A stretch of 64,000 nt of DNA from Escherichia coli (GCF_030013595.1 NZ_CP122768.1); one strand, 5' to 3'. Shown: positions 2,912 to 60,555, numbered from the stretch's first letter. Made by a program: numbers and translations. The notes: generated by a model not told the origin, from the sequence alone.

Positions 2912-3137
2912 TGCGCTTAACGTATTGAACTTTGAAACGCTGATTTTCTACAGTGACAATATCACCCTGCTTTAAGTCTCCCTCACGACAAAATAGAAAT
3001 TCTGTCTCTGTCATTACCCCTGATTCGTCGGTAGTAGTAATTTCATGATAAGCACGAATTGATTTACCACCTTCCACCGAAAATACAGGAGCACTTCGGA
3101 ACATTCTTGATAATTGTGATTCTGATAATTTGAACAT
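2847..3137 (-). CDS. Putative head-tail adaptor/joining protein, 96 aa
   Basis: ORF track; AAGGGGG SD; size and position immediately after capsid gene. Confidence 0.35.
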   Translation of the reverse strand: MFKLSESQLSRMFRSAPVFSVEGGKSIRAYHEITTTDESGVMTETEFLFCREGDLKQGDIVTVENQRFKVQYVKRNGDNTTDCFITLAGGTHARYR

Positions 3138-7427: not shown

Positions 7428-9332
7428 TTAGAACGATGTTACCCAGCTACGGCCTCTATTTGGGCGTCTGACGATGTTTTGACGTTGTGGTCGTGTGATT
7501 GGCTTAGTTTCTTCGATTTGCTCGTCAGATTGCGATTTAGGAGCTTCTACAGGTTCTTCTGGTTCACGGTTCAAACTATCTTTGATGGCTTCGAGTTTTT
7601 CCCATGACATTTTATTGAGTACATGACGAGAAGCAGCATAGGAATAAGCCAGGCAGTCCAACGCTTCGTTTCGTGTTTGTCCAACTTTTACCCAACGTGT
7701 GGTATTACCCTGCCGTTTCAACTGTTCAGAAAGCAATTGCTCGCAATAGTCATCAGGAACGTCACCAATCTGGAAGACAGTGTGAGGATCGCCATCTCTC
7801 AAGTTCCGGTTAATCATTTCACGGATCATCGTTTTAAGGTTGTTTACGCCCAGAATTTTAAGGGTAAAACCACCCGTTCTTGTGTCTTTTACCGGAAGGA
7901 TTGGTGCATCAACATTGCTTGCGCCTTTAATGGCGGTTAGATTTTGCCACCGACTACAGAATCGATAGATCACGTTTGTAGCTCGTCCGTTCGATGAGTC
8001 CACGAAAGCAGATAACATCGGGATTCGTTCACCGGATCGGGTATAGAATTTAGCTTTCAGGAAGTTGTAAAGCTGGTTATATGCTGGTGATTCGTGGCGT
8101 TCGCAGTTCACATCATAGAATGATCGGTGATCAACTACGCATAGCCCTTTACGAGAAATACCCAGCAAGGTAGATTCCAGACGGTCTTTTTGCTGGTCAA
8201 CTCCACCTACCAGAGCCAGTACATCATCAGGAATATTGTCTAGGCTAATATCAGTTTTCAGCGTTTCTAATTCGTCGGCTGTGCGGTCTTCGTTAAGATC
8301 ATCGAAGGTTTCACCGAGGACTGTATTGTAGAACGTTGCCAGGGACATATTCGCGTAGCTATCAGCAAAGTCCACCACACACGCACGGATAGAACTAAAC
8401 GGAGACATAAGGCGGTTAGCATGAAAACCGATTACTTCCGCGTTTGGTTCGGTGGCGACCCATTCTCCCTGTCCAACAGCACGTAGGCGATCACCCTCGG
8501 TCCAATCGGTTTCACATTCAGGGCAACGGTAAACGGCTGTATCTGGGTTGGGTAATGATTTACCGTTAATCGTATGCCAATCGAAATGTACGTTACTCCA
8601 TTCCATTACGTGCTTGTGTCCGCAATGCTGGCAAACGACATGATATTTTCTCTTATCCGAGAGTTCCCATTGTTGGTTAATCGCCCCATCACGAGCGGTT
8701 GGAGTGGAAGCAATTACGATCCTTGCATCTTCCCCGAAAGTGGTTGCGCGTTGTTCCGCTAGTTGGATCGGGTTCCCTTCGTCTGACTCATCAGCCGCAT
8801 CAACTTCATCAAGAATAATCAAAGGGAGTGTTTTACCGCGAAGATGTGACGGACTATTCAACGACATGAAATACATAAACGATCCGTTACGAAGCTGAAT
8901 AATCGATGAGTTGTTAACGGCATTGCGATCTGATTTGTCGGTGATCATCGCCTTTAATTCTGGTGTTGCCTCTAATACTGGCTTCACCTTACCAGCGATC
9001 CAAGAATTTAGTTCTCTAACGTTACTTTGCAACACCCCAATATTAGTAGGGTTACTCGCGATCCGATGGAAGATAATTCCGTTAAGAATCATGGTCTTAC
9101 CCAACTGTGCCGAACATTTAAACACAATTTTTCTACGGTCTTCGGTGATCGCGTCCATCATTCCACGTTGGAAGGGATGCAATTTAATTAGCGATCCGGC
9201 TTTAACACCATCGGTTGCAACTACATTAGCCTCTACCCATTCGCTAGGTTTCATCGTTTTAGGTGGGCGAATTGCCGCAGAGATATTTTTAAGAATCTTT
9301 TTTAATTTTGCCTTGTTCGAAATCAGTTTCAT
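7428..9332 (-). CDS. Terminase large subunit, lambda GpA family, 634 aa
   Basis: ORF track; recalled lambda gpA similarity: ..HPFQRGMMDAI.. near N-terminus, Walker-A-like KCSAQLGKT, C-terminal RNEALDCLAYSYAA matching gpA RNEALDCFVYALAA. Confidence 0.85.
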   Translation of the reverse strand: MKLISNKAKLKKILKNISAAIRPPKTMKPSEWVEANVVATDGVKAGSLIKLHPFQRGMMDAITEDRRKIVFKCSAQLGKTMILNGIIFHRIASNPTNIGVLQSNVRELNSWIAGKVKPVLEATPELKAMITDKSDRNAVNNSSIIQLRNGSFMYFMSLNSPSHLRGKTLPLIILDEVDAADESDEGNPIQLAEQRATTFGEDARIVIASTPTARDGAINQQWELSDKRKYHVVCQHCGHKHVMEWSNVHFDWHTINGKSLPNPDTAVYRCPECETDWTEGDRLRAVGQGEWVATEPNAEVIGFHANRLMSPFSSIRACVVDFADSYANMSLATFYNTVLGETFDDLNEDRTADELETLKTDISLDNIPDDVLALVGGVDQQKDRLESTLLGISRKGLCVVDHRSFYDVNCERHESPAYNQLYNFLKAKFYTRSGERIPMLSAFVDSSNGRATNVIYRFCSRWQNLTAIKGASNVDAPILPVKDTRTGGFTLKILGVNNLKTMIREMINRNLRDGDPHTVFQIGDVPDDYCEQLLSEQLKRQGNTTRWVKVGQTRNEALDCLAYSYAASRHVLNKMSWEKLEAIKDSLNREPEEPVEAPKSQSDEQIEETKPITRPQRQNIVRRPNRGRSWVTSF

Positions 9333-9498: not shown

Positions 9499-9732
9499 AT
9501 GACTATGACTACTAAAGCTACTCGCGGTCGCCCTGCCCGTTATACTCGTGAACAGATGGCTGATATTGCCTACGCTTACTATACAGCGGATCGCGGGAAG
9601 GAAGCGAAAGAACAGATTCTTAGTGAACATGGGATTTCAGTAGCCCAATTCTATAAGAATATGAAGAAGTTAGACATTAAATTCTATGTTCAGATCGATG
9701 ACGGTCAGATCGTAGAAGCAACAGGTTTTTGA
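9499..9732 (+). CDS. Small putative DNA-binding protein, 77 aa (paralog of 13446..13628)
   Basis: ORF track; N-terminal RGRPARYTRE motif shared with the second small protein (ARPVKFTRE); own promoter and terminator. Confidence 0.45.
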   Translation: MTMTTKATRGRPARYTREQMADIAYAYYTADRGKEAKEQILSEHGISVAQFYKNMKKLDIKFYVQIDDGQIVEATGF

Positions 9733-11905: not shown

Positions 11906-12094
11906 TTACAGCATATCTAAGCCTTCATCGTAACCGTAGAAGCCATTCTGAGAAGAGAAGCAGATTGGTGCGTAGTCGTCGTCATCTTCGTCTTGTTCAT
12001 CTTGTTCTGGGGCTTCCTGAGCGGTTTCTTTGCCGTAGTTAAACATGGCTTCATCCAGTTCATAGTGGAAATCCTCTAAAAGAAAGTGAATCAA
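11906..12094 (-). CDS. Small strongly acidic protein (62 aa from TTG; 46 aa from internal ATG); frame uncertain
   Basis: ORF track (TTG start); acidic run EAPEQDEQDEDDDDY; an alternative overlapping frame has the better SD. Confidence 0.25.
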   Translation of the reverse strand: MIHFLLEDFHYELDEAMFNYGKETAQEAPEQDEQDEDDDDYAPICFSSQNGFYGYDEGLDML

Positions 12095-12700
12095 TCTAAT
12101 ATTATTTATAAAGAGAAAATTCTTGTTATTATGAAAGGAGTGATCTGGTAGAGTCCAAAACTGGTCTGTACTTGAAAGGTGATTGGATTCAGTCGGGCAA
12201 AGCCCTCCTTCATGTTTTGATTAAATCATCATCAAAACGAAGAAGTATCTTTAGAATATAAGATCTTTCTTTTGGAGAAATAATAATCAGGAAGCAATTT
12301 GGCAACCGAAGGTTGCAATCCCGAAGGGATAACCAATACCTTTCTAGAAAGTGATTGTTACTCACTTCGTTCGTTTACTAGAATCAGTTATCATCTGGTA
12401 TTAAATCCCTTTCTAAGAAAATCCTTTCAAAAGTGATTCTCGATGCCACGCAGTGGCGTCGCAGACGTTTGGGAGTGAGCGAAGCGAGCGAGCAAACTAG
12501 TTAATTCCTTCTAAGACCATCTAGTATCATCTAGTTTAAATTAGTTGTTACTAGAAGCAATTGGTTGGCGCTTCGCGCAGTCGGGCTAAAGCCCTCCTAA
12601 TTATCTTTTTGGTTATTTGTTGTTTTTAGTTTTACACATGAGCGTAGCGAATGTGTTATATAATATCTATGCACGCCCAATCCCCCGCTTTTTCCCCTCA
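12095..12700. other. ~600 bp hairpin-dense non-coding region (candidate structured RNA or DNA-level origin/packaging signals)
   Basis: No ORF; many short-loop hairpins (GCAACC-GAA-GGTTGC, ATCCC-GAA-GGGAT, GCCAC-GCA-GTGGC, GCGC-TTC-GCGC); CTAG-rich; ~20-bp direct repeats CAGTCGGGC(T)AAAGCCCTCCT at ~12190-12209 and ~12578-12598. Confidence 0.5.
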
Positions 12701-12743
12701 CTAAGTTAATGTTTTATAAAGAGTTTTTCTCACCAATCCTTTT

Positions 12744-12931
12744 CGGGGGCAAATTTCAGGGGCAAAAATTAGATTTTCAGGGGCAAAAATAGTGGGTTTC
12801 AGGGGCAAAAATGAGGGGCAAAATCACTGTTTCCCAGAATTTCAGGGGCAAAAATAGTGGGTTTCAGGGGCAAAAATGGGATGTGGAATCTAGGGGATTT
12901 TGGTTCAGGGGCAAAATTCAGGGGCAATTTT
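12744..12931 (+). repeat. Iteron array: 9 copies of (TTCA)GGGGCAAAAAT, including an exact 38-bp duplication
   Basis: Read directly; copies at ~12746, 12759, 12780, 12802, 12815, 12845, 12867, 12908, 12921; 38-mer TTCAGGGGCAAAAATAGTGGGTTTCAGGGGCAAAAATG at 12777 and 12841. Confidence 0.85.
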
Positions 12932-12968
12932 CATAGTGTAGGGCTAGTGTAGGTTTGAAAATCCTTTG

Positions 12969-13025
12969 TTGACACTGTGTAGGATCGGTGGTATACTTGA
13001 AAATTCGAGATAAATATGTTATAAT
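12969..13025 (+). promoter_or_regulatory. Tandem near-consensus sigma70 promoters next to the iterons
   Basis: P1 TTGACA (12969-12974), 17 bp, TATACT (12992-12997); P2 TTGAAA (12997-13002), 17 bp, TGtTATAAT (13017-13025). Confidence 0.55.
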
Positions 13026-13171
13026 ATTTGTATTGAAAGTGAAAATTTACCGATTTTCCTTCCTATTGTTATCACCGTGTTAAATTGTTATATGTCTGTG
13101 AAGATTTGGATCTGAGAGAAAATCTTGTAACAAATCTTTACAATTCATAGCTCAATTAATGCTCACCGCTT

Positions 13172-13310: not shown

Positions 13311-13445
13311 ATCTCTGTTATAAATACATATATAAGAGATAAATGTGAGGGGTTGAAAAATAAAATACAATCCCATATAAATAATAGTGAGCGGTTAACG
13401 CTCTTTTTTAAGAAATCATTAATCCACATTGTAGGAGGATTCGAG

Positions 13446-13628
13446 ATGGCACGACCTGTTAAGTTCACTCGCGAAATCATCTTAGAAATGGCTAAACGCT
13501 ACTTTGAGTTAACGCCGGGTGTGAGAATTGAAGAGTGGTTTAAAAATGAGGGCATCGATAAATCAACCTTTCATAAACTGCTAAAACGATATGACATTAA
13601 AGTGAAGATTGAAGCTACCGTTTGGTAA
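13446..13628 (+). CDS. Small putative DNA-binding protein, 60 aa (paralog of 9499..9732)
   Basis: ATG with AGGAGGA SD inside tracked ORF 13353..13628 (which begins at TTG); MARPVKFTRE motif. Confidence 0.5.
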   Translation: MARPVKFTREIILEMAKRYFELTPGVRIEEWFKNEGIDKSTFHKLLKRYDIKVKIEATVW

Positions 13629-15345: not shown

Positions 15346-15903
15346 TTAAGACACATCAAATTCATCGTCTTCTTCTGGTTCTTGTTCTTCCGGTTCATCC
15401 ATTAATGGTAATTCTTCTTCCTCGTCTTCTCCCAAATCTGCATTTTCGAACAAGTCCCCTACTTCATTTAAACGACGCTCGATGATCTCCCTTAGCTTAT
15501 TCTTTAATGTTTTCTGGTCATTGGCAGATTCGAGAATTTCTAGGGCATCGATCGTACAAATCTGCAAAATAGTCTGCTTCACTTTCCCGCAATATTCCGC
15601 TAGTTGCTGTTCTACATAACCGACAGGAATCAGGAGGTTCATTTTTTCCTGATTCTCTCGTTCGGCTGCATCTGCCATTGCTCTTTCTCTGCGGAGACGT
15701 TCTTGATCAATCGCTTCTTTGATTGAAGTTTGTTTAAGTGGGTTAATTACGTTCTTTAGCACCCAATCGCAACCTTCCTTTGCCGGAACACGCCTCTTAT
15801 TGGTATTGTAAGGTAGTCCCCTTTCTAACCATCGCTTACCGCCACCATTCAATGTATAGCCATATAAACGGGAAATTTCTGTAAGGGTTAATTCTTCTTT
15901 CAT
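15346..15903 (-). CDS. Nu1-like small terminase subunit candidate (winged-HTH protein with acidic C-terminus), 185 aa
   Basis: ORF track; strong GGAGGA SD; GGGK and W.ERGLP motifs loosely like lambda Nu1 (recalled); first gene inside the element boundary. Confidence 0.4.
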   Translation of the reverse strand: MKEELTLTEISRLYGYTLNGGGKRWLERGLPYNTNKRRVPAKEGCDWVLKNVINPLKQTSIKEAIDQERLRRERAMADAAERENQEKMNLLIPVGYVEQQLAEYCGKVKQTILQICTIDALEILESANDQKTLKNKLREIIERRLNEVGDLFENADLGEDEEEELPLMDEPEEQEPEEDDEFDVS

Positions 15904-16350
15904 TGGTTATCCTCCATTAAATTTGCGTAATTTTATTTATTGGTTTTACGCAAAATCTAAGCGCCTAAATCGCATTCTAACGAAGGGAAAGATCCAGTAA
16001 TGGTAAGGGCTAGGAAGTGGGTTAATAGTCGCGTAGCGACCGCGCTAGGACTGCACTGATCACGTTTTAAAATCTCACACGCACATCAAAAACCGGGGTG
16101 CCGAAAACTCGCTTTATCTGACCCCGATCCAGAACCTAAATCATTTGTCAAGTCTTTCCGATTCAGTAAAGGGGAACATGCATCTAAGCTAGAGAAGCTC
16201 ATAAAGACTAAGTATGAATGCGGTGTTGTTAGTCGGGATGATATGCGAGACGGTTACACTGAAACGCTACCATTTGAAGCATTGCCGGAGATCATCACTA
16301 TCACCAACAAAATGATAAGCGAAAGCATCCTCGTAAGTAATTGATTCCTA

Positions 16351-16380
16351 AGCCCTGTCCTTGTGATGGGGCTTTTTTAT
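16351..16380 (+). terminator. Hairpin plus T-run at the element edge (third member of the AGCCCTG...GGGGCTTTTT family)
   Basis: AGCCCTGTCCTTGTGATGGGGCT followed by TTTTTT. Confidence 0.45.
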
Positions 16381-16394
16381 TGGAAAAATTTTAG

Positions 16395-16724
16395 TTATTG
16401 GGGTTTACAACATTTAGGTTTGCCAATTCGTCTGGCTAACTCTTGCTGAGTGATTTCTGACTGTAAAAAAGCATTTAACAGCAATACCTTAGAGGCGACA
16501 CTCAAAGGCACTTCAATAAAGTGATCGTGACTATTTAATGGCGAAGGTAACGGGATAAGCTCGTTATCTTCAAAATAAAAATCAAATGCGGTCAGTAAAG
16601 CATCTTTTGCCGCTTCCATCGCTTCAGCAACTGTTTCGCCCTGGGTCAACGCTTCAGGGATATCCACAAAAGAAACCATATAACCGCCTTCCGGCGCGGG
16701 TGTAAGAGTGACGGGATAACGCAT
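16395..16724 (-). CDS. hicB: HicB antitoxin, C-terminally truncated at the element junction
   Basis: Matches recalled K-12 HicB from MRYPVTLTPAPEGGYMV.. through ..ARRIGKPK, then 5 non-native codons (CCKPQ) and a stop; C-terminal DNA-binding domain missing. Confidence 0.7.
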   Translation of the reverse strand: MRYPVTLTPAPEGGYMVSFVDIPEALTQGETVAEAMEAAKDALLTAFDFYFEDNELIPLPSPLNSHDHFIEVPLSVASKVLLLNAFLQSEITQQELARRIGKPKCCKPQ

Positions 16725-16769
16725 AATTTCGACTGTCTCTCGCATGTCATTAACCTTTTTAATTGGCGA

Positions 16770-21358: not shown

Positions 21359-22027
21359 TTACTTTTTGTTAACGTCAAACATAGTGGCATCGGTCGCCAT
21401 GTCATCAATAACTTGTTTAATATTTTCGAAAGCCATTGGCGTACTTTCGTTATTCAGGTCTTTACCTTCGCCCTGACGAACGACTTTGATAACCGGTTTA
21501 TTAGTCGCTGCATCAATCAGCTCACCTTCAAAATAGAGGCGAGTATCCATGGTACGGTGGCCCGTCGCCATTTGCGTCCCCGCGACCACTAATGCGACAG
21601 GAACCACTTCATAGAATTGCAGCCCTTCTTTGCTGGTATCAACACCGGTAATGGCCCCACGGAAAATCAGACTACGCGGCCCAGCGGTGGTAACCAGTGG
21701 TTTACGCTGCGCTATCGCTTCTTTCATTTCGGTGTTGGTATAGTTCAAAATTTTATCCAGAACTTTCTGCCCTACCTGGGTTGAAGGTTTCGGTACCGGA
21801 TAATAAGTGATTGGGTTCCAGACGATGCTGTCATATTTGCTTTGATCAAAACTCGGGTCTACCCAACGTAAAACAGGTTTACCTGTTGCTGAGGTTGTTT
21901 CTTTTAAATCAGAGTAATTGTTTAAAAAACCAGAATATTTATCTGGCTGGGTGATTTTAGAGGCACAACCAGACAGAGCCAACAAGCCGCATAAAGCTGC
22001 AACTTTCGCAAATGATGTGGTACGCAT
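21359..22027 (-). CDS. ydcL: Lipoprotein YdcL, 222 aa
   Basis: ORF track; lipobox LSGCAS. Confidence 0.65.
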   Translation of the reverse strand: MRTTSFAKVAALCGLLALSGCASKITQPDKYSGFLNNYSDLKETTSATGKPVLRWVDPSFDQSKYDSIVWNPITYYPVPKPSTQVGQKVLDKILNYTNTEMKEAIAQRKPLVTTAGPRSLIFRGAITGVDTSKEGLQFYEVVPVALVVAGTQMATGHRTMDTRLYFEGELIDAATNKPVIKVVRQGEGKDLNNESTPMAFENIKQVIDDMATDATMFDVNKK

Positions 22028-22329
22028 GAATAGTTTCCTGAGATGATTATATTACTTTCTAAGTTATAGCAAAAAGCGCCGCTTCGTGTTGTGGCAAAAA
22101 AAGTGTTGGTGAAAATAAATTTTTTAGCCCCTTTTCAGACGACATAGTCAATGCCGAAAAAGGGGCTAAGTCAATCATCAGTAGTTAAATTTCAGTAAGT
22201 TAAGCGGCTAAAAAACTTCGACTACTGTGATTAATTTCACATCCCTTCGATAAAAAATATGCTTACCGAAAAGAAGAACAGTAAACCATCTCAGCGTGGG
22301 GAATTTTCACGCGCTTTGTTCTTACCGGA

Positions 22330-22923
22330 TCATTTTTTACGTGCCAGCATCGTGGCGAAACGCAGTTTAATACGATTACCGTTGGCGTCGGTACGGTGCA
22401 GCTCGCCGACGTCTTCATTGTATTTCACCCTCTCCCAGCCTTCGTAATATCGACGTAATTCTCCCTCTTTGAATGCAAACGGGAAGCCGACGGTACATGG
22501 ATAATCAGCGGTATCCATCGCCGCCACAATCAGGTTGTAACCGCCAGGTTTAGTGCAACGTTGCATATTGGCAATCAGCCCTGGGATGGTTTTAGCCTCA
22601 AGGAACATCAGCACCACAGTCGAAATAATAAAATCGTACTGTCCATCAAATGTGAGGTTATTCAGATCAACGACCCGGGTGTGTAAATTATCCAGATTTT
22701 CAATGGACTTAATGCGCTCGACGTTGGCGATACTCATGGCATTTTTATCCCATGCGTCAACATCATAACCATTGGCTGCCAGGTAAAGACTGTTACGACC
22801 ATTGCCACAGCCCAGATCCAGCGTTTTGCCCGGTTTAACCACTTTCACCGCTTCCAGCACTTCAGAGTGTGTGCGGGTTAATTCATATTTATCAGTAAAA
22901 TAGTTTTCATCACGAATGATCAT
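22330..22923 (-). CDS. tehB: Tellurite resistance methyltransferase TehB, 197 aa
   Basis: ORF track; SAM-MTase motif [10 protein letters not shown]; overlaps tehA by 4 bp. Confidence 0.85.
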
Positions 22924-32015: not shown

Positions 32016-32355
32016 TACCGTTGTCTCTCGTCCAGGTTTACTCCTGATAGAAAGTCATCGGCACTTGACGGTAATTACTTATGACCAAAAACCTCTTTGC
32101 GTCACATTTTTACAACAATTATGGCAGAGAAAATTAATGCTATTGGAATGAAGAGAGTAACGAATGGCTAAACTGGCTAACCCGAATGACGAAAAATTCT
32201 GGAAAACAGCACGCAATTTCGTCAGGTGATTATTTTCGTCCCTAAGGAAACCACATAGGATGCTCACGGGTGCCTGAGACTTTCTGTTTTCAGGCTAACC
32301 GGGAATCAGAAAGACGAAGGCCCCGACCGATATTTCTATCAACCGAGGCCAACGA

Positions 32356-32563
<208 letters not shown>

Positions 32564-32787: not shown

Positions 32788-33042
32788 GATGTTTTCATAT
32801 AACCTCCATGGTTTATCGAATCTTATGTTCGATTTGAACGTTATACGCTGGTTTATTTTGATACCGTTGATGAGATCAAAGATCGGGTGAATTGATTAAA
32901 GATAAGCCAGATGGACGTATGGATAAGGATTATGGTTTTATTTGTCATACAAATAAATATAATAGGCGCTTCCGATGTAGACCCGTATTCTTCGCCTGTA
33001 CCACGGGTCGGTTTTAGTACAGGCGTTTTCTTTAAATATCCT

Positions 33043-49353: not shown

Positions 49354-50062
49354 AGAATAAATATCCTCCGGCATAGCCGGAGGTTTTTCAAATGCGCCTG
49401 TAAGGCTCTGTTACCAGCCGCGCCCTAACAGGCGCATACGATCTGACATTTGCATTCAACTTCGTTACTTACGGCCCGTAAACGGGCTGCCCGGATATGG
49501 AATCGATAACTGCTCCCCCATTTTATCCTCTTCAAGCTGGTGCTTTATGTAGTCCTGTATCTTCGCCGTGTTCTTACCCACCGTATCGACATAGTACCCT
49601 CGGCACCAGAACTCCCTGTTTCTGTATTTGAATTTCAAATCCCCAAACTGCTCGTAAAGCATCAGACTGCTTTTCCCTTTCAGATATCCCATAAAGCCGG
49701 ATACGCTCATTTTGGGTGGGATTTCCACAAGCATATGGATATGATCTGCGCAGCACTCTGCTTCCAGAATCCGTACGCTTTTCCACTCACACAGCTTTCT
49801 CAAAATACTGCCTATCGCCCTACGCTTCTCTCCGTAAAACGCCAGTCTTCGGTATTTCGGCGCAAAAACTATGTGATATTTACAGTTCCAGCGGGTGTGC
49901 GCTAAGCTCTTTTCGTCCCCCATTGGGACCCCCTTTTGATTTCTTGTTTGACACTTGCAGTTGCCAGACCGCAAGGTGTTTTAACAAATCAAAAGGGGTT
50001 TTAATAACTGGCTCAAAGCTGAAAGCTTTCCGGAACCCCCAGCCTAGCTGGGGGTTTTCTGT
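49354..50062 (-). mobile_element. IS200 (IS200/IS605 family), ~709 bp; boundaries approximate
   Basis: Contains tnpA; LE perfect hairpin AACCCCCAGC-CTA-GCTGGGGGTT at 50034-50056; RE hairpin CCTCCGGCATAGCCGGAGG at ~49365-49383. Confidence 0.8.
49465..49923 (-). CDS. tnpA: IS200 transposase TnpA (Y1/HUH), 152 aa
   Basis: MGDEKSLAHTRWNCKYHIVFAPKYRR.. with HxH motif (ADHIHMLVEIPP); inside tracked ORF 49465..49974. Confidence 0.85.
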   Translation of the reverse strand: MGDEKSLAHTRWNCKYHIVFAPKYRRLAFYGEKRRAIGSILRKLCEWKSVRILEAECCADHIHMLVEIPPKMSVSGFMGYLKGKSSLMLYEQFGDLKFKYRNREFWCRGYYVDTVGKNTAKIQDYIKHQLEEDKMGEQLSIPYPGSPFTGRK

Positions 50063-60195: not shown

Positions 60196-60223
60196 ATGCT
60201 CTGGATAAGAATTATCCAATTCT

Positions 60224-60328
60224 AAAAAAAAGCCCGAACGACTGTTCGGGCTTGTCTCATTATTTGTTGGATAAACAGTAACAAGGGTCCAACAGAAAAT
60301 AATCTTTGTGACAATAAAGGCATATAAC
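60224..60328 (-). ncRNA. micC: MicC small RNA
   Basis: Minus-sense GTTATATGCCTTTATTGTCACA.. 5' end and hairpin plus U-tract terminator; between ydbK and ompN as in K-12. Confidence 0.7.
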
Positions 60329-60555
60329 CCGCGAAGAATAACGTATAGCAAATTAAAAGTATAATTTTTATTTTGTATGTATTATCTTCGATACATTCAC
60401 CAGACTTATTATCATTTCAGAAGAATTATTTGATTAAGGTTTTACTTAAGGCGTAACAAATGATATTTATCGGCTAACTGAACTTCTCCTTTAGGATGTT
60501 TTCACTCCCCGAAATGGGGATAAAAGGCAAATAAAATAACTAAAGGATTTATTCA

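Follow-up and report, generated by a model that had tools for sequence, protein, structure and literature searches.

The hicB-side end of an Escherichia coli prophage: a probable packaging region, a decayed nuclease gene in a cargo slot and an attachment site

In phage lambda, the packaging site is arranged as cosQ-cosN-cosB upstream of Nu1, the region between cosN and the Nu1 gene being cosB. In lambda and phage 21, specificity is set by the pairing of the Nu1 N-domain with cosB, and large terminase subunits (TerL) of the gpA family are typical of cos phages. The locus described here is a gap at positions 15904-16394 of a 64,000-nucleotide stretch of Escherichia coli DNA (GCF_030013595.1, NZ_CP122768.1), referred to as the window. 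Like lambda, it is accompanied by a gpA-type TerL and by a small-subunit candidate with an N-terminal DNA-binding domain, and conserved non-coding DNA adjoins the gene of that candidate on its upstream side. As in the lambda/phage 21 pair, one element switches with the N-domain of the small subunit and the rest is shared. The locus differs from lambda cos in that 6 kb of other genes separate the terS-like gene from terL and in that the region abuts an attachment site; moreover, it has no sequence similarity to lambda cos and is known here from sequence alone.

The remaining parts of the locus also have described counterparts. Phage GIY-YIG/T5orf172 homing-endonuclease-like genes (PF10544, PF13455, PHROG 681) are resembled by an intact allele found in a related prophage, in its domain and cysteine-rich N-terminal region as well as in its intergenic site, which is occupied or vacant among collinear genomes. 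The window, in contrast, holds the last 18% of the gene and has no GIY/YIG strands, start or promoter. Accessory ('moron') or hotspot slots at the ends of prophages and satellites hold unrelated genes with their own terminators, or nothing, at one bordered position, and the same is seen here, with the difference that the cargo proteins, like their neighbours, match no PADLOC defence model and have annotations limited to an LprI domain and a nuclease. The attachment (att) sites of large serine recombinases (phiC31/Bxb1 type) are similar to the element boundary in having imperfect inverted arms around a short core and in targeting a host coding sequence, and a 559-aa protein of relatives combines Resolvase, Recombinase and Zn_ribbon_recom domains. 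The shared core of 12 bp is, however, longer than the strictly needed 2-bp crossover dinucleotide.

We consider it probable that positions 15904-16424 form the right end of a ~38-kb siphophage-like prophage integrated in the 3' end of hicB, and that this end comprises a packaging region, the tail of a nuclease gene and an att arm (Table 1). Each of these parts is of a kind that is ordinary in phages. The proposed order, starting at the terS-like gene and going rightward, is a conserved block (~250 bp), a slot for accessory genes, and the att arm with its 12-bp core. To the left of the interval lie genes for TerL, portal and a protease-capsid fusion, and tail-fibre genes reach the window start. 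TerL (7428-9332) matches PF05876 (E = 1.4e-61) and PF20454 (E = 5.4e-46), placing it with the gpA-type proteins of lambda-type cos phages. To the right, hicB, hicA, yncJ and rlhA follow in the same order as in E. coli K-12. The interval had been described in a first-pass annotation as free of ORFs and its coding remnant as promoter-less, and both statements hold: in an ORF scan, the longest frames that begin with a start codon measure 33-38 aa, and a sigma-70 consensus scan of both strands returned nothing in 15904-16394. Rfam scans at the gathering threshold (whole window) and by E-value (15800-16500) placed no RNA family in the interval, the single match being at chance level (18 bits vs a gathering score of 50).

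Table 1. Features at the hicB-side end of the prophage (positions in the window)
Feature	Position	Strand	Remark
TerS-like gene, 185 aa	15346-15903	-	N-terminal helix-turn-helix-like domain, coiled coil, acidic tail
ORF-free gap	15904-16394		between terS-like start (15903, minus strand) and hicB stop (16395)
Perfect 9-bp inverted repeat TTTGCGTAA-N15-TTACGCAAA	15922-15954	.	terS-like leader
Invariant GC-rich element GTTAATAGTCGCGTAGCGACCGCGC	16021-16045	.	putative TerS-type-specific recognition (cosB-like) site
GC-rich segment TAGTCGCGTAGCGACCGCGCTA	16026-16047
Open frame	16060-16341, TGA 16342-16344	+	94 codons
GC-rich block ACCGGGGTGCCGAAAACTC	16092-16110	.	quasi-palindrome between T/A runs; alternative cosN candidate
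Conserved left border of slot, TTGTCAAGTCTTT	16145-16157	.	kept in E. coli and Salmonella relatives
Nuclease 3' remnant (64 codons and stop)	16148-16344	+	without start codon, ribosome-binding site or promoter
Predicted intrinsic terminator of cargo cassette	16350-16383	+	hairpin and T-run
Phage-derived att arm	16387-16412	.	contains GTTATTGGGG, inverted partner of GTTATTGTGGGGG at other prophage end
Host hicB, truncated, 116-aa ORF	16395-16745	-	last 34 codons replaced by five phage codons and stop
12-bp core TTTAGGTTTGCC	16413-16424	.	common to attP and hicB attB; true element/chromosome boundary

The prophage belongs to an uncultured family of modest interest, and about 60 of 5,426 complete E. 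coli genomes contain a relative. The prophage found whole in strain ETEC1703 (L004) has a length of ~38 kb. Relatives are integrated in hicB or in ycdX, a PHP-domain phosphatase gene, with similar attP arms (GTTATTG..GGGG; L004, L005, L006, L027, L058-L060, L063), and a literature search on prophage integration in hicB or ycdX found nothing relevant. Relatives in Salmonella and Proteus also adjoin a PHP gene, and in Proteus a HicB-like gene is close by. Among 50,697 phage records, the TerL of the family is at best 44% identical, to that of phage DCP80. Two TerL alleles (window 7428-9332; L029 8024-9931) with 58% protein identity reassort freely with the types of terS and of the left block, as the conserved DNA upstream of the terS-like gene is called here, and all types share about 98% identity over the first 48 nt of terL. 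In E. coli PE15 (L001 1-2038), an mcr-1/pap2 segment flanked by ISApl1 is found about 400 bp beyond the 3' end of the terS-like gene, a place taken in the window by genes for 94-aa and 313-aa proteins, and the colistin-resistance gene mcr-1 is in this case inside the prophage family. Elsewhere in the window, the small proteins encoded at 9499-9732 and 13353-13628 (plus strand) are alike by eye (..RPxxYT/FTRE...), match no Pfam, PHROG or NCBIfam family and may be paralogous DNA-binding proteins. Gathering-level Rfam matches at 32268-32419, 32969-33032, 49933-50056 and 60216-60331 are to sok antitoxin RNA, RydC, STnc490 and MicC, ordinary enterobacterial chromosomal sRNAs.

The assignment of the terS-like gene product as a small terminase subunit would rest on one PHROG profile and weak PDB matches. 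Over 145 residues the protein is matched by phrog_57, 'terminase small subunit' (E = 2.7e-11), a name that NCBI also gives to some homologues of the protein. A profile search returned only 12 weak PDB matches, three of which are solved TerS N-domains (6hn7_B, 1j9i_A and 7lw0_A; E 0.09-0.75), 1j9i being lambda gpNu1. Structure models were poor from the single sequence (pLDDT 54) and moderate from an alignment (pLDDT 73), and a Foldseek comparison of the model with the PDB gave no match with E <= 0.001, the fold search showing only generic winged-helix resemblances. The gene is 6 kb away from terL and the two do not form one co-oriented operon, an arrangement that is unusual for a true TerS. The gene and the conserved block could instead make up a module with a regulatory or hitch-hiking role, such as a DNA-binding regulator and its operators, with cos or pac elsewhere. 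The distance from terL, the location at the outermost end of the prophage in a two-gene unit of its own and the generic fold resemblances would all suit such a module, as would the lack of a Pfam or NCBIfam terminase match for the protein and of a tblastn match in about 50,000 phage genomes. Nevertheless, we regard it as quite unlikely in view of the PHROG match over most of the protein's 185 residues and the presence of three TerS domains among so few PDB matches. In addition, no other TerS candidate was seen adjoining terL, and all relatives, over the range from E. coli to Proteus, have the gene in this place.

The interval directly upstream of the TerS-like gene is where a packaging site of the lambda type would be. 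Over ~250 bp, conserved islands are found among 24 distinct related sequences, and this non-coding block carries the terS leader and, by analogy with lambda cos-Nu1, may hold a packaging recognition region. Within it lies the GC-rich segment that had been put forward as a weak cos-like candidate. The segment is present and conserved: GTTAATAGTCGCGTAGCGACCGCGC is identical in 22 of the 24 distinct left-block sequences and its flanks vary, and the segment makes up the longest unchanged stretch when the two main types of left-block sequence are compared. It is under selection, because a 16-mer (16028-16043) recurs exactly in a Salmonella relative (L058) in which the flanks and TerS (69% identical) have diverged.

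The GC-rich element covaries with the type of the TerS N-domain. Every distinct sequence with an N-domain of the RRVP type has GCGGTCGCTACGCGAC (24/24), all three with the RRCP type have ACAACGAGCTAAA in place of the GC-rich element, and the other N-domain types have neither. A binding element that matches the type of the DNA-binding domain of its subunit is what would be expected of cosB, but the sequences are tightly linked and the lineages non-independent; with element and domain only 125-200 bp apart in related lineages, linkage contributes to the covariation and alone could suffice. One TerS (L008) is chimeric, the N-terminal ~82 residues being of the RRCP type and the C-terminal half of the window type, and the 150 bp upstream switch together with the N-domain. 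A possible association of the element with TerL, suspected as L3Cip3 differs in both, was rejected by cross-tabulating TerL alleles against left-block types.

As the segment follows the TerS N-domain and not TerL, it is more likely to be a recognition site for TerS, similar to cosB, than a cut site, and to this extent the earlier cos-like proposal needs to be modified. Its being cosN itself, nicked by TerL to yield cohesive ends, is unlikely. The segment is GC-rich with short dyads (GTCGC-GTA-GCGAC), lies 125-145 bp upstream of the terS-like start, is invariant in 22 distinct relatives as well as exact in the Salmonella relative, and is accompanied by a TerL of the gpA family, all of which would be in keeping with cosN. 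However, the same segment is found in genomes with a TerL of only 58% identity, and a wholly different sequence can stand beside a TerL of the window type. The swapped module of L008, furthermore, corresponds exactly to the TerS N-domain and about 150 bp upstream, and the comparable region of lambda, from cosN to Nu1, is cosB. By position, the second GC-rich block (Table 1) would be a better cosN candidate than the putative recognition site. It lies just beyond the swapped module and is kept across both TerS types, GTGCCGAAAACTC being present in all 24 distinct left blocks, including two TerS type-2 sequences, and at the corresponding place in Proteus and Salmonella relatives there is a GC-rich block with T-runs on either side. 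The left-block motifs recur elsewhere in the prophage only as chance-level 11-12-mers. Neither the DNA of the interval nor the TerS protein had a match in the phage collection (50,697 records), so there was no mapped cos site to borrow, and the matches in IMG/VR are not virion contigs but predicted prophages whose ends were trimmed to host or gene boundaries.

Two further motifs are conserved in the region. The inverted repeat of the terS-like leader adjoins the ribosome-binding site of the gene (GGAGGA, reverse complement of 15909-15914), and diverged relatives in E. coli and Salmonella, with either TerS type, retain its arms (TTGCGTAA/TTACGCA). The repeat may act as an operator or form an RNA hairpin. 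On the minus strand, a perfect TTGACA (16146-16151) is followed 8-10 nt on by a conserved AGGTWCT (together 16131-16151), and the pair is kept in most relatives. The TTGACA was rejected as a standard promoter, there being no acceptable -10 at 16-18 bp in any variant, and the pair could be an unusual phage promoter or a protein-binding site.

Beyond the conserved block, the site is a variable cargo slot that spans from TTGTCAAGTCTTT to the terminator or att arm. It holds a 101-aa gene in L001, L004 and L008, a gene for an LprI-like (LprI-domain) protein in L007 and an intact nuclease gene in L002, and is empty in L005 and L006. Different small genes, or one for a 390-397-aa CapR-domain protein, occupy it in the relatives from Salmonella and Proteus and in diverged ones from E. 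coli. In the window, a hairpin of 10 pairs (16350-16374) followed by TTTTTTATT has a fold energy of -14.6 kcal/mol (z = -2.2 vs shuffles), and with its GC-rich stem and U-run at the 3' end of a gene it has the predicted features of a Rho-independent terminator. Such a terminator is predicted after every cargo type (nuclease, 101-aa gene and LprI-like gene), with base changes in L007 that keep the pairs, and is absent from the empty-slot relatives.

The content of the slot in the window had been recognized from its translation as a plus-strand frame of ~90 residues without a usable start codon, ending just before a terminator and suggestive of a decayed gene. This description proved accurate. 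The frame of 94 codons reads as the translation given before, with the terminator close behind, and has no ATG, GTG or TTG before codon 62; the first canonical start is an ATG at 16243 that would give 33 aa only. Start and promoter have been lost, and the tail of the frame matches an intact gene. By megablast, positions 245-491 of the interval match, at 97%, the 3' end of a gene for a 'GIY-YIG nuclease family protein' in E. coli PRO_A, and no match covering at least 80% of the interval was found among 5,426 complete E. coli genomes. At the PRO_A locus (L002) the 354-aa gene is intact, and its neighbours on the two sides are, as in the window, the terS-like gene and the truncated hicB. The remnant differs from L002 3001-3197 at 4 of 197 nt, all synonymous, and a comparison at the protein level, which had been proposed as a check, showed its product to be identical (64/64) to residues 291-354 of the intact nuclease; across the intact nuclease family, a protein search aligned it to residues 289-352. 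The nuclease-derived part of the frame is thus the last 64 of its 94 codons (16150-16341), and the first 30 are chance read-through of the conserved non-coding block.

The intact L002 nuclease matches PF13455 (23.7 bits, cut-off 22.3), PF10544 (23.1 bits, cut-off 20) and phrog_681 'endonuclease' (E = 7.5e-52), and no match was found among PDB sequences. Its family is broad, with 992 representatives at E <= 0.001 and a best identity of 58% among 1.84 billion representative proteins; the same search recovered a called 83-aa copy of the remnant. The sequence in the window is a fragment of a GIY-YIG/T5orf172 member and not itself a member, because its 94-aa translation matches no Pfam family and the intact allele does. 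The nuclease-domain match in the intact protein starts at residue 252 and the remnant at 291, so the catalytic core is incomplete in the remnant. Of the related prophages in those 5,426 complete genomes, one has the intact gene, one a remnant and the others neither. The gene is therefore polymorphic in presence at a fixed intergenic site among collinear genomes. The prophage family encodes two further proteins of this sort, namely a CapR and GIY-YIG paralogue, encoded beside the recombinase gene and sharing 48% identity over the nuclease domain, and a NUMOD3 protein from within the tail module; in L004 their genes are at 11973-13148 and 21643-22413. The nuclease looks like one of several homing-endonuclease-like passengers, as judged from domain matches.

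The junction that created the remnant can be located precisely. The 10-mer TCAAGTCTTT occurs exactly twice in the intact L002 locus, at 2019 in the upstream non-coding block and 982 bp further on, at 3001, inside the nuclease gene. The window holds a single copy, at 16148-16157, which is the deletion junction, and the comparison of two copies with one therefore points to a deletion between short direct repeats. Loss of the 982 bp between these 10-bp repeats, probably by slippage or illegitimate recombination, removed the promoter, the ribosome-binding site and codons 1-290 of a free-standing homing-endonuclease-like GIY-YIG/T5orf172 gene that formerly held the slot in the window lineage, leaving an untranslatable 64-codon tail before the original terminator. 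The deleted stretch carried a promoter-like CTGACC-17-TAGAAT with extended -10 and an AGGAGG ribosome-binding site. The identical junction is found in an IMG/VR prophage (L010), in a Logan contig (L027) and in strain CFSAN061761, where the match begins exactly at the second repeat copy, and a 521-bp region identical to that of the window is present in four public assemblies. The contig L027 has a different terS type, is integrated in ycdX and carries the 101-aa gene after the remnant. A few remnant lineages have substitutions (H->Y, M->L, L->I), a two-codon in-frame deletion or a replaced C-terminus. Most simply, a single old deletion would have been spread by recombination between the conserved flanks, and the remnant would now be drifting.

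The remnant is most probably inert. That the open frame is a working small gene, in which the C-terminal part of the nuclease has been retained in some new function, is in our judgement very improbable. The persistence of the same junction and open frame in three different contexts, an in-frame ATG in L027 that gives 83 aa and has been called as a gene, and the lack of any amino-acid change in the window copy relative to the intact allele would all be consistent with such a gene. On the other hand, neither the window nor L010 has an ATG, GTG or TTG in the first 61 codons of the frame, no Shine-Dalgarno or promoter-like site was found for the frame in the window, the N-terminal half of the nuclease domain is missing, and the changes in the other remnant lineages are of the kinds listed above. 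The four synonymous differences, moreover, are expected if the divergence of the alleles is older than a recent deletion. A more specific possibility, to which we give equally little credence, is that the tail, as a frame of 83-94 codons with the identical junction, has stayed open in three recombinationally distinct backgrounds because it is expressed, for example by read-through or from an unrecognized phage promoter, as an immunity or dominant-negative piece against a paralogous GIY-YIG nuclease or its target site in related phages. A drifting and probably silent remnant of a cargo gene is preferred.

The interval had also been thought to hold the end of the element. It does lie at the end of the integrated prophage, but the physical boundary is outside it, within the reading frame of hicB and ~20-30 bp further right. 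Homology to ycdX-integrated relatives ends at about 16386 and identity to K-12 hicB begins at 16413, the DNA between them being a phage-derived att arm. The other arm was taken from the left junction of L3Cip3, a relative integrated in hicB, where the core (GGCAAACCTAAA in the hicB sense) precedes the 3' part lost from the truncated gene. Combining the two junctions with the K-12 attB gave a reconstructed attP (hicB sense) of GTGTTATTGTGGGGGCATTATATTA|GGCAAACCTAAA|TGTTGTAAACCCCAATAAC. Its arms are imperfect inverted repeats, and both ends of the prophage are hybrid junctions. The boundary is a serine-recombinase att site inside hicB; the recombinase gene itself is seen only in relatives (L004 and L028), at the opposite end of the prophage and outside the window.

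Integration has left hicB as a truncated host gene that is not part of the element. HicB keeps residues 1-104 of the K-12 protein, and its C-terminal 34 residues are exchanged for phage-encoded CCKPQ and a stop; RefSeq annotates the gene in relatives as 'incomplete, missing C-terminus'. Since hicB is truncated and hicA intact, the antitoxin of the lysogen is altered. In a genome with the same configuration (L030, GCA_026548445.1), the T-run of the att core is 1 bp shorter (TTTAGGTTGCC) and frameshifts hicB, which may be a sequencing error or a real variant.

The value of these results is mainly for annotation: the interval is a prophage end with a pseudogene fragment, a terminator and an attachment site, and hicB is a host gene cut by integration. 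They also provide a defined attP/attB pair for an uncultured prophage family that targets hicB or ycdX via a serine recombinase. Finally, the TerS N-domain and the upstream 16-mer swap as a module and reassort freely with two TerL types, which, if confirmed, would represent a packaging-specificity system in the style of lambda and phage 21.
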